Positions 1-34,745 of a stretch of DNA of 64,000 bases are shown piece after piece. The DNA comes from Escherichia coli (lineage in GTDB: Bacteria > Pseudomonadota > Gammaproteobacteria > Enterobacterales > Enterobacteriaceae). Under the pieces are notes generated by a model. The model ran no database searches, was not told where the DNA came from, and saw nothing but the letters and a program-made list of their open reading frames with translations. The first letter of the stretch is position 1. Each line of letters starts with the position of its first letter. Location: the NCBI RefSeq assembly GCF_030013205.1, contig NZ_CP122648.1; one strand, given 5' to 3'. Position numbers and translations under genes: made by a program.

Positions 1-236
1 GCGCCTTCGCGCGCCATACTCTCGGCCAGAATGCCGCCGCCACAACCGACATCGAGTACCTTTTTGCCAAATAAACCGCCAGCACGCTCGGCAATATAGC
101 CCAGACGCAGCGGGTTAATGCGGTGCAGCGGTTTGAACTCACCTTCAAGATCCCACCAGCGGGAGGCGACAGCTTCAAATTTAGCGATCTCTTCGTGGTC
201 TACGTTATGGTTTACCGGCGATTTTTCGGCATTCAT
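1..236 (-). CDS. ubiG: ubiquinone biosynthesis O-methyltransferase UbiG, N-terminal part (gene continues past left edge)
   Basis: Minus strand from ATG at 236..234 translates [73 protein letters not shown], recognisable UbiG N-terminus with the SAM-binding GCGGG motif; divergent from gyrA as in E. coli. Confidence 0.85.
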
Positions 237-382
237 TGGCACTTCTACTCCGTAATTGGCAAGACAAACGAGTATATCAGGCATTGGATGTGAATAAAGC
301 GTATAGGTTTACCTCAAACTGCGCGGCTGTGTTATAATTTGCGACCTTTGAATCCGGGATACAGTAGAGGGATAGCGGTTAG

Positions 383-3010
383 ATGAGCGACCTTGCGAGA
401 GAAATTACACCGGTCAACATTGAGGAAGAGCTGAAGAGCTCCTATCTGGATTATGCGATGTCGGTCATTGTTGGCCGTGCGCTGCCAGATGTCCGAGATG
501 GCCTGAAGCCGGTACACCGTCGCGTACTTTACGCCATGAACGTACTAGGCAATGACTGGAACAAAGCCTATAAAAAATCTGCCCGTGTCGTTGGTGACGT
601 AATCGGTAAATACCATCCCCATGGTGACTCGGCGGTTTATGATACGATCGTCCGTATGGCGCAGCCATTCTCGCTGCGTTACATGCTGGTAGACGGTCAG
701 GGTAACTTCGGTTCCATCGACGGCGACTCTGCGGCGGCAATGCGTTATACGGAAATCCGTCTGGCGAAAATTGCCCATGAACTGATGGCCGATCTCGAAA
801 AAGAGACGGTCGATTTCGTTGATAACTATGACGGCACGGAAAAAATTCCCGACGTCATGCCAACCAAAATTCCTAACCTGCTGGTGAACGGTTCTTCCGG
901 TATCGCCGTAGGTATGGCAACCAACATCCCGCCGCACAACCTGACGGAAGTCATCAACGGTTGTCTGGCGTATATCGATGATGAAGACATCAGCATTGAA
1001 GGGCTGATGGAACACATCCCGGGGCCGGACTTCCCGACGGCGGCAATCATTAACGGTCGTCGCGGTATTGAAGAAGCTTACCGTACCGGTCGTGGCAAGG
1101 TATATATCCGCGCCCGTGCCGAAGTGGAAGTTGACGCCAAAACCGGACGTGAAACCATTATCGTCCACGAAATTCCGTATCAGGTAAACAAAGCGCGCCT
1201 GATCGAGAAGATTGCGGAACTGGTAAAAGAAAAACGCGTGGAAGGCATCAGCGCGCTGCGTGACGAGTCTGACAAAGACGGTATGCGCATCGTGATTGAA
1301 GTTAAACGCGATGCGGTCGGTGAAGTTGTGCTTAACAACCTCTACTCCCAGACCCAGTTGCAGGTTTCTTTCGGTATCAACATGGTGGCATTGCATCATG
1401 GTCAGCCGAAGATCATGAACCTGAAAGACATCATCGCGGCGTTTGTTCGTCACCGCCGCGAAGTGGTGACTCGTCGTACTATTTTCGAACTGCGTAAAGC
1501 TCGCGATCGTGCTCATATCCTTGAAGCATTAGCCGTGGCACTGGCGAACATCGACCCGATCATCGAACTGATCCGTCATGCGCCGACGCCTGCAGAAGCG
1601 AAAACTGCGCTGGTTGCTAATCCGTGGCAGCTGGGCAACGTTGCCGCGATGCTCGAACGAGCGGGCGATGATGCTGCGCGTCCGGAATGGCTGGAGCCAG
1701 AGTTCGGCGTGCGTGATGGTCTGTACTACCTGACCGAACAGCAAGCTCAGGCGATTCTGGATCTGCGTTTGCAGAAACTGACCGGCCTTGAGCATGAAAA
1801 ACTGCTCGACGAATACAAAGAGCTGCTGGATCAGATCGCAGAACTGCTGCGTATTCTTGGCAGTGCCGATCGTCTGATGGAAGTGATCCGCGAAGAGCTG
1901 GAACTGGTTCGTGAACAGTTCGGTGACAAACGTCGTACTGAAATTACTGCCAACAGCGCCGACATCAACCTGGAAGATCTGATCACCCAGGAAGATGTGG
2001 TTGTGACGCTCTCTCACCAGGGCTACGTGAAGTATCAGCCGCTTTCTGAATACGAAGCGCAGCGTCGTGGCGGGAAAGGTAAATCTGCCGCACGTATTAA
2101 AGAAGAAGACTTTATTGACCGACTGCTGGTGGCGAACACCCACGACCATATTCTGTGCTTCTCCAGCCGTGGTCGCGTCTATTCGATGAAAGTCTATCAG
2201 TTGCCGGAAGCCACTCGTGGCGCGCGTGGTCGTCCGATCGTCAACCTGCTGCCGCTGGAGCAGGACGAACGTATCACTGCGATCCTGCCGGTGACCGAGT
2301 TTGAAGAAGGCGTGAAAGTCTTCATGGCGACCGCTAACGGTACCGTGAAGAAAACTGTCCTCACCGAATTCAACCGTCTGCGTACCGCCGGTAAAGTGGC
2401 GATCAAACTGGTTGACGGCGATGAGCTGATCGGCGTTGACCTGACCAGCGGCGAAGACGAAGTAATGCTGTTCTCCGCTGAAGGTAAAGTGGTGCGCTTT
2501 AAAGAGTCTTCTGTCCGTGCGATGGGCTGCAACACCACCGGTGTTCGTGGTATTCGTTTAGGCGAAGGCGATAAAGTCGTCTCTCTGATCGTGCCTCGTG
2601 GCGATGGCGCAATCCTCACCGCAACGCAGAACGGTTATGGTAAACGTACCGCAGTGGCGGAATACCCGACTAAGTCGCGTGCGACGAAAGGGGTTATCTC
2701 CATCAAGGTTACCGAACGTAACGGTTTAGTGGTTGGCGCGGTGCAGGTAGATGACTGCGACCAGATCATGATGATCACCGATGCCGGTACGCTGGTACGT
2801 ACTCGCGTTTCGGAAATCAGCATCGTGGGCCGTAACACCCAGGGCGTGATCCTCATCCGTACTGCGGAAGATGAAAACGTAGTGGGTCTGCAACGTGTTG
2901 CTGAACCGGTTGACGAGGAAGATCTGGATACCATCGACGGCAGTGCCGCGGAAGGGGACGATGAAATCGCTCCGGAAGTGGACGTTGACGACGAGCCAGA
3001 AGAAGAATAA
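383..3010 (+). CDS. gyrA: DNA gyrase subunit A
   Basis: 875-aa ORF starting [53 protein letters not shown], active-site region [11 protein letters not shown], acidic C-terminal tail; full-length GyrA. Confidence 0.97.
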
Positions 3011-3029
3011 TTTTACTTCTTCATGCCAA

Positions 3030-3090
3030 AAGGGAGCTATCTCCCTTGTTTGAATTGAAAAGTCCAGGCTGCAAAGTCTGGGCTTTTGTC
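3030..3090 (+). terminator. possible gyrA terminator region (weak hairpins followed by T-rich runs)
   Basis: GGGAGCTATCTCCC then TTGTTT; second short stem CCAG/CTGG followed by GCTTTTGTCG. Stems are short. Confidence 0.3.
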
Positions 3091-3158
3091 GTATTAGGGC
3101 GCGGTAAAGTTTTGCTGTGCTCATAAAAAATGGCTGGCTTTACACAAGGAATGTGGCA

Positions 3159-10005
<6,847 letters not shown>

Positions 10006-16551: not shown

Positions 16552-17937
16552 TTATACATCCGCCGGATCGATACCGTATTCCTGGAGTTTATACATCAAT
16601 GCACGGCGACTGATGCCCAGCATTAAAGCAGTGCGGGTTCGGTTTCCTTCTTGTTGTTCCAGCACTTCCATAATGATGCGTTTTTCGACGCGTTTAATTT
16701 CCTCTTTTAAATTACGCTCTCCGACAGGGGATGTTTTTACCTCGCCAGCATTACAGACTGGCTGACGAATCTGCGGCGGAAGATCCTCAGAAAAAATGAT
16801 CGGGCCTGAGTTCATCACGACGGCGCGTTCAATAACGTTGGAAAGCTCTCGAATATTTCCCGGCCATGACCAGGCGGTAAGCAGTGACATTGCCATCGGA
16901 TCGATGTCGATAATATCGCGCTGATTCTCACTACTGAATTTTTGCAAAAAGTGATTAGCTAACAGGGAAATATCTTCCCGGCGATCGCGCAGAGGCGGCA
17001 GTATTAAATGAATAACGTTAAGGCGATAAAAGAGATCTTCACGGAAGGTGCCTTCTTTTACCATTGCCTGCAAGTCACGGTTGGTGGCAGCAATGATGCG
17101 GATATCAACTTTTATGGTCTGATGGCCGCCAATCCGTTCAAATTCCCGTTCCTGCAGAATGCGTAGTAATTTGGCTTGCAGTACGAGCGGCATTTCGCCA
17201 ATTTCGTCGAGGAGCAGAGTACCTTCGTTGGCACGTTCAAATAATCCCTGACGCAAGGTTTGTGCACCAGTAAATGCACCTTTTTCATGACCAAACAGTT
17301 CACTTTCGAGCAACGATTCCGGCAGCGCCGCGCAGTTGACTTTAATGAACGGCCCCTTTGCCCGCCGCGAATTGTAGTGAATCGCTCTGGCAATCAACTC
17401 TTTCCCGGTGCCGCTTTCACCGCTAATCAAGACGCTGGCCTGAGAAAGGGCAATTTTGGCGGTGTCTTTGCAGATGTCCATCATCGCCGGGCTGTTGGTG
17501 AGAATGTGCCCCCATTGCCAGCTAGTGCTCAGTGCCTGGTGCAGATGGCGGATCTCTTTTTTCATTGACTGGAGTTGTAAAGCGCGCTGAACGATTAAAT
17601 TCAACTCATCGAGATCAAACGGTTTGATAACATAGTCGAAGGCCCCGCAGCGTAGCGCTTCGACGGCGGTTTCCACTTCAGCATAGGCCGTCATCAGAAT
17701 AACGGGGGTCCGTGTCTCATGGCTGCGCATCTCCTTGAGTGCCTTGATGCCGTCCATCTCTGGCATGCGGATATCCATCAACACCACGTCAGGGTGAATA
17801 TCAGCAAACAGGTGTAATGCTGTGCGTCCGTTGTTCGCACAATGTGTTTCGAAACCTTGTAGTGCAAAAGCGGTGCTCAGCATACGGCGAACATTATCTT
17901 CATCATCCACAATAAGGATGCGATTAATAGCAGTCAT
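16552..17937 (-). CDS. atoC: sigma-54-dependent response regulator AtoC
   Basis: 461-aa ORF: receiver domain (ILIVDDEDNVRRML), AAA+ sigma-54 activator core (GESGTGKE, GAFTGA), C-terminal HTH. Confidence 0.95.
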   Translation of the reverse strand: MTAINRILIVDDEDNVRRMLSTAFALQGFETHCANNGRTALHLFADIHPDVVLMDIRMPEMDGIKALKEMRSHETRTPVILMTAYAEVETAVEALRCGAFDYVIKPFDLDELNLIVQRALQLQSMKKEIRHLHQALSTSWQWGHILTNSPAMMDICKDTAKIALSQASVLISGESGTGKELIARAIHYNSRRAKGPFIKVNCAALPESLLESELFGHEKGAFTGAQTLRQGLFERANEGTLLLDEIGEMPLVLQAKLLRILQEREFERIGGHQTIKVDIRIIAATNRDLQAMVKEGTFREDLFYRLNVIHLILPPLRDRREDISLLANHFLQKFSSENQRDIIDIDPMAMSLLTAWSWPGNIRELSNVIERAVVMNSGPIIFSEDLPPQIRQPVCNAGEVKTSPVGERNLKEEIKRVEKRIIMEVLEQQEGNRTRTALMLGISRRALMYKLQEYGIDPADV

Positions 17938-34601: not shown

Positions 34602-34603
34602 TG

Positions 34604-34745
34604 ATGTGCCACATCCGGCATGGTATGCCGGATGTGGCGTATGCAGATAAGACGCGCCAGCGTCTTATCAGGCAACCGGCTTGGGCGTTAGATCGGATGC
34701 GGCGTAACCGCCTTATCTGACCTACGGGGTGGAGCACTTCACGGC
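34604..34745. repeat. REP element cluster between convergent mqo and eco
   Basis: GCCGGATGTGGCGTATGCAGATAAGACGCGCCAGCGTCTTATCAGGC ... GATGCGGCGTAACCGCCTTATCTGACCTAC, tandem REP-type palindromes. Confidence 0.6.

Follow-up and report, generated by a model that had tools for sequence, protein, structure and literature searches.

The stretch of DNA analysed here, referred to as the window, comprises 64,000 nt of Escherichia coli DNA, and the gene under study within it is gyrA, which encodes DNA gyrase subunit A. According to the list of open reading frames and their translations, the coding sequence occupies 383..3010 on the plus strand and consists of 875 codons followed by a TAA stop codon. 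In the genomes CFSAN018748 and ETEC4079, both of which carry the identical gene, PGAP called gyrA at exactly these coordinates including the start codon, and the order ubiG-gyrA-yfaA retains the arrangement found in K-12. In a profile search the encoded protein reached 1310 bits with TIGR01063, the NCBIfam equivalog model for gyrA with a cut-off of 877, and remained under the cut-offs of the parC models, with 580 bits for parC_Gneg (cut-off 629). Direct comparison revealed 875 of 875 amino acids to be identical to GyrA of K-12 MG1655 (b2231, NP_416734.1), at equal length and without gaps, and the same holds for full-length E. coli GyrA in the PDB entry 6rks_A, residues 1-875. The alignment of the translated 383..3010 to a reference GyrA, which an earlier note on this DNA had proposed as a check, is thus gapless and 100% identical with both references.

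The quinolone-resistance-determining region (QRDR), whose bounds we take to be GyrA residues 67-106, extends over 581..700 on the plus strand and has the K-12 amino acid sequence throughout. It includes codon 83 at 629..631, which is TCG and encodes the wild-type Ser, as well as codon 87 at 641..643, which is GAT and encodes the wild-type Asp, K-12 having the synonymous GAC at this place; the surrounding positions 620-650 read CATGGTGACTCGGCGGTTTATGATACGATCG. The earlier note had read residues 81-87 as GDSAVYD with Ser83 and Asp87 at these very codons, and counting from the ATG at 383 confirms this reading. Further downstream on the same strand, codon 122 (TAT, 746..748) encodes the catalytic Tyr122, preceded by Arg121; in E. 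coli gyrase Tyr122 is the residue that forms the covalent bond with the cleaved DNA. The C-terminal domain contains the GyrA box QRRGGKG (residues 560-566, 2060..2080, plus strand), the motif that tells GyrA from ParC.

ParC, the paralogous subunit A of topoisomerase IV, shares the fold and a homologous drug site on helix IV, with Ser80 and Glu84 as the equivalent residues, and ParC entries were matched by the GyrA query as well, however at lower scores. In contrast to ParC, the protein encoded in the window contains the GyrA box, and the real parC of the matching genome is located approximately 1 Mb away. The gene product is assigned to the GyrA family by its TIGR01063 score, above the cut-off and above the scores with ParC models, by Tyr122 and by the GyrA box. 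Based on the complete identity to the K-12 enzyme, for which a solved structure exists, it is predicted to support supercoiling together with GyrB. A promoter and terminator scan of positions 200-3200 picked up no gyrA promoter and returned fewer promoter-like sites than were obtained in shuffled sequence. By eye, a TATAAT hexamer can be recognised at 333-338; as it obtained no support from the scan, it was not retained as a feature.

The matching genome and further features of the window

The window aligns over its full length to positions 1759726-1823724 of the ETEC4079 record NZ_CP122643.1 with 0 mismatches and one 1-base gap. This single difference is a run of eight T at window positions 51461-51468, for which the ETEC4079 record has seven, and it lies in a stem-loop/T-tract downstream of yejO; it probably reflects uncertainty in homopolymer length or a difference between assembly versions. 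The gyrA gene of ETEC4079 is identical to that of the window at the DNA level throughout the gene. ETEC4079 was isolated from pig faeces in Belgium and is an F18-positive, Stx2e-positive and haemolytic strain (Front Microbiol 2023;14:1139312, PMC10151945), for which a chromosome, plasmids of 77,176, 216,724, 36,528 and 58,596 bp as well as a contig of 4,376 bp are reported (ETEC_4079 in Supplementary Table 5, PMC10151945). From the sequence identity we infer that the window derives from ETEC4079 or a clonal strain, and the one-base difference would also fit a different version of the assembly or a sister isolate. The related genome CFSAN018748 aligns to the window with 99.76% identity up to position ~51494, where the alignment ends.

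Comparison with CFSAN018748 also brought out smaller changes in the window. The gene atoS, encoding the sensor kinase of the acetoacetate two-component system (17934-19756, minus strand), is frameshifted near 19309; the window contains two CCTG units at this place versus three in CFSAN018748, and PGAP classes the ETEC4079 copy as a pseudogene. Loss of a 4-nt repeat unit is less likely to be a long-read error than a homopolymer indel. Between mqo and eco, at 34603-34630, the window contains an insertion of 28 bp, GATGTGCCACATCCGGCATGGTATGCCG, relative to CFSAN018748, which looks like a REP-type palindromic unit. Two small RNAs were matched at their expected K-12-like positions, namely the antisense RNA MicF at 26509-26602 on the minus strand upstream of ompC (116.8 bits) and the REP-derived nucleoid-associated RNA naRNA4 at 22772-22848 on the plus strand between rcsC and rcsB (73.4 bits). 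Both ompC and MicF, present in the window, look intact.

The integrated element at the end of the window

The place at which the CFSAN018748 alignment ends coincides with the start of an integrated element of ~13 kb, which reaches from window position 51495 to beyond 64000, is located between yejO and tRNA-Pro and is lacking in CFSAN018748. Its left boundary is marked by a degenerate copy of the 3'-end of tRNA-Pro at ~51475-51494, while its right end is the intact tRNA-Pro past the end of the window; a search for exact direct repeats of at least 12 nt flanking the element gave no hit. Genes of the element code for an integrase, an HTH regulator, a RepA-family primase/helicase-like protein, a ProQ/FinO protein and a PerC-type activator, as well as for a NUDIX protein, a lytic transglycosylase of 679 aa and a DUF2213 protein; an Icd-like pseudogene is also present, and one of the encoded proteins gives a weak match to the small terminase subunit. 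Just inside the left end, window positions 51709-51790 resemble the cos site that is annotated in the Stx2e-converting phage phiP27, with 86.9% identity over 82 nt. Taken together, the element looks like a cos-type phage satellite integrated at tRNA-Pro, and the similarity to the phiP27 cos site suggests that a phiP27-like helper phage may be able to package it. Alongside this cos match, it was observed that ETEC4079 is Stx2e-positive. For follow-up studies, the element would be a better target than the gyrA finding.

Synonymous divergence and census of gyrA alleles

While the GyrA protein is identical to that of K-12, the gene differs from K-12 gyrA at 50 nt (98.1% identity). All of these differences are synonymous, 49 of them affecting the third and one the first codon position. 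The QRDR and its vicinity contain five of them, namely GTC>GTT at codon 85, GAC>GAT at codon 87, CGC>CGT at codon 91, TAT>TAC at codon 100 and TCT>TCC at codon 111. Of the 5,425 complete E. coli genomes in which gyrA was matched, only 60 have a gene with at least 99% DNA identity to that of the window, and the identical copies listed come from pig isolates, among them O139:H1 and 'ETEC' strains. The gene is a clear example of a divergent and lineage-restricted gyrA allele under purifying selection.

The distribution of the spellings around the drug site was determined in 5,426 complete E. coli genomes by a census with exact 33-nt words covering codons 79-89. The spellings queried account for 82% of the genomes, the other 18% having other spellings or mutations, so that all percentages are lower bounds. 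Wild-type codons 83 and 87 were found in 639 genomes with the K-12-type spelling GTC85/GAC87, in 2,014 genomes with GTT85/GAC87 and in 25 genomes (0.5%) with GTT85/GAT87, the spelling of the window. The amino acid state of the wild type is therefore common, with at least 49% of the 5,426 genomes, whereas the spelling of the window itself is rare. The exchange S83L on the GTC85/GAC87 background was present in 72 genomes, and the double exchange S83L+D87N in 331 genomes as GTC85/AAC87 and in 1,371 genomes as GTT85/AAC87, which amounts to at least 1,702 of the 5,426 genomes. Neither change is present in the gyrA gene of the window, which sets it apart from these and other resistant alleles (S83L, D87N/G/Y). 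In the set of 5,426 genomes, a plasmid record accounts for one of the gyrA matches, and a plasmid record likewise for one match of the 33-mer for S83L+D87N (GTT/AAC). The two may or may not be the same record, and either a misassigned replicon or a real plasmid-borne resistant gyrA copy might lie behind them.

The rare spelling of the window leaves the known mutational routes unchanged. At codon 83, a single change of TCG to TTG, C>T at position 630, results in Leu (S83L), and at codon 87 single-base changes of GAT lead to Asn (AAT), Gly (GGT) or Tyr (TAT). As Leu83 and Asn, Gly or Tyr at 87 can each be reached in one step, the usual first-step resistance mutations are equally accessible on this allele. 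It is unlikely that the rare spelling (GTT85, GAT87, CGT91, TAC100, TCC111) has diagnostic consequences as the mark of a divergent pig-lineage allele, although its mismatches, especially the one at the third base of codon 87, might give false calls in probe assays or allele-specific PCR assays designed on K-12.

State of the quinolone target and phenotype of the matching isolate

DNA gyrase is a heterotetramer of the composition GyrA2GyrB2, in which Tyr122 of GyrA becomes covalently linked to the cut DNA. Quinolones bind where the DNA is cleaved, and their contact to the enzyme is a water-Mg2+ bridge, which, as biochemical work on E. coli gyrase indicates, is anchored by both Ser83 and the acidic residue 87 of helix IV and which mainly positions the drug (PMC9917921). 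The absence of S83L and D87N/G/Y from the window, as it had been stated in the earlier note, is borne out and can be widened to the entire protein: since the whole GyrA sequence is that of K-12, it contains no resistance substitution at any position. Positions 51, 67, 81, 82, 84, 106 and 196 were inspected one by one and each shows the K-12 state (A51, A67, G81, D82, A84, Q106, A196), and the lineage-marker positions 678 and 828 are in the K-12 state as well. The related strain ETEC4090 served as a positive control, in which this codon comparison recovered D87N (GAC>AAC). ETEC4090 is reported with a single GyrA mutation (PMC10151945); it shares the gene and its genomic context with the window and differs by AAC (Asn) at codon 87, on a synonymous background that is K-12-like.

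These assignments depend on the residue numbering and on the correctness of the assembled codons. A shifted numbering, in which the Ser and Asp seen here would not be residues 83 and 87, is excluded: the proteins of the window, K-12 and 6rks_A all have 875 aa and align without gaps from position 1 to position 1, PGAP chose the identical start codon in two genomes, and it is this equal length together with the gapless identity that makes the standard E. coli numbering applicable. An assembly artefact, by which a true S83L or D87 substitution was lost through a long-read consensus error, might be considered because the matching assembly derives from a study using nanopore sequencing and the sole difference between window and record is the length of a homopolymer. 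Nanopore errors, however, are mostly homopolymer indels, and codons 83 and 87 are located outside of any homopolymer. In addition, the 33-nt spelling of the window is present in 24 other independent complete genomes, at least 15 further records listed carry the gene with 100% identity, D87N was called in ETEC4090 by the same pipeline, and the wild-type call agrees with the susceptible phenotype of the matching strain. We consider such an artefact exceedingly improbable.

A wild-type GyrA could also be combined with non-susceptibility of the strain if parC, parE or gyrB were mutated, if plasmid genes such as qnr, aac(6')-Ib-cr, oqxAB or qepA were present or if efflux was up-regulated, as gyrA by itself does not set the quinolone phenotype and low-level resistance may arise from efflux or from mutated regulators (marR, acrR, soxR). 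This explanation draws on the multidrug resistance of ETEC4079, whose large plasmids carry tet(B), blaTEM-1, sul3, cmlA1, floR, mph(A) and others, and on the detection of qnrS1 in six strains of the same collection (PMC10151945). The additional targets of ETEC4079, by contrast, are all of wild type: ParE and GyrB are identical to the K-12 proteins, and ParC (NZ_CP122643.1, 739247-741505) has the wild-type residues Ser80 and Glu84, which settles the parC check suggested in the earlier note for this matching genome. The sole difference of this ParC to K-12 is D475E; it was noted that this exchange lies outside of the ParC QRDR and that the strain is phenotypically quinolone-susceptible. With regard to the qnr check suggested alongside, the published ResFinder table lists many other resistance classes for ETEC4079 and none of qnr, aac(6')-Ib-cr, oqxAB and qepA for any of its replicons (PMC10151945). 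Likewise, no plasmid quinolone genes were found in the annotation of the first 50 kb of ETEC4079 plasmids 1 and 2, and according to the annotation of the matching genome the window contains no resistance determinants, qnr, oqxAB, qepA and aac(6')-Ib included. The published disc zones of ETEC4079 (Supplementary Table 2, PMC10151945) are well within the wild-type range of that study: enrofloxacin gave 39 mm (cut-off >=30 mm), flumequine 33 mm (cut-off >=26 or 25 mm) and marbofloxacin 38 mm (cut-off >=31 or 26 mm). ETEC4079 is thus phenotypically wild type to quinolones, which would extend to the strain of the window through the sequence identity. Together, these data render non-susceptibility by another route very unlikely. 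In section 3.2.3 of the same study, A56T, G78C and S80I/R are ascribed to GyrA and S83L and 87N/G to ParC; the two protein labels are interchanged there, as residues 83 and 87 belong to GyrA and residues 56, 78 and 80 to ParC (PMC10151945).

Taking all of this into account, we are almost certain that the gene encodes a wild-type GyrA and that the locus is devoid of target-mediated quinolone resistance. The gyrA with which the window opens is the chromosomal gene of a pig-associated E. coli lineage indistinguishable from ETEC4079 and encodes the K-12-identical GyrA, which would assemble with GyrB to form gyrase and, by Tyr122, cleave DNA and hold it covalently. A quinolone would then enter the cut DNA and be set in place by the water-Mg2+ bridge anchored at Ser83 and Asp87. 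With both anchors and every other residue intact, and the protein being that of the reference enzyme, the encoded target should be the normal, drug-sensitive one; this sensitivity is suggested by the identity to K-12 and backed by the phenotype published for this strain's match, ETEC4079. The quinolone susceptibility that the earlier note had predicted by this locus holds in this respect, the protein being that of the drug-sensitive K-12 reference and the published zones of the matching strain being of wild type.

The finding represents the textbook wild-type allele of a well-characterised gene and is as such already known. It concerns an essential and highly conserved gene in its ancestral state rather than a statistical pattern, for which reason chance is irrelevant. 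It is a clean negative that raises no new question from the gyrA locus and gives no hint of new gyrase or quinolone-resistance biology. Its value is a practical one only: the primary quinolone target is unmutated, in line with the susceptible phenotype of the matching isolate, and no more than one point mutation, C>T at 630 or an exchange at 641 or 642, separates the strain from reduced susceptibility.
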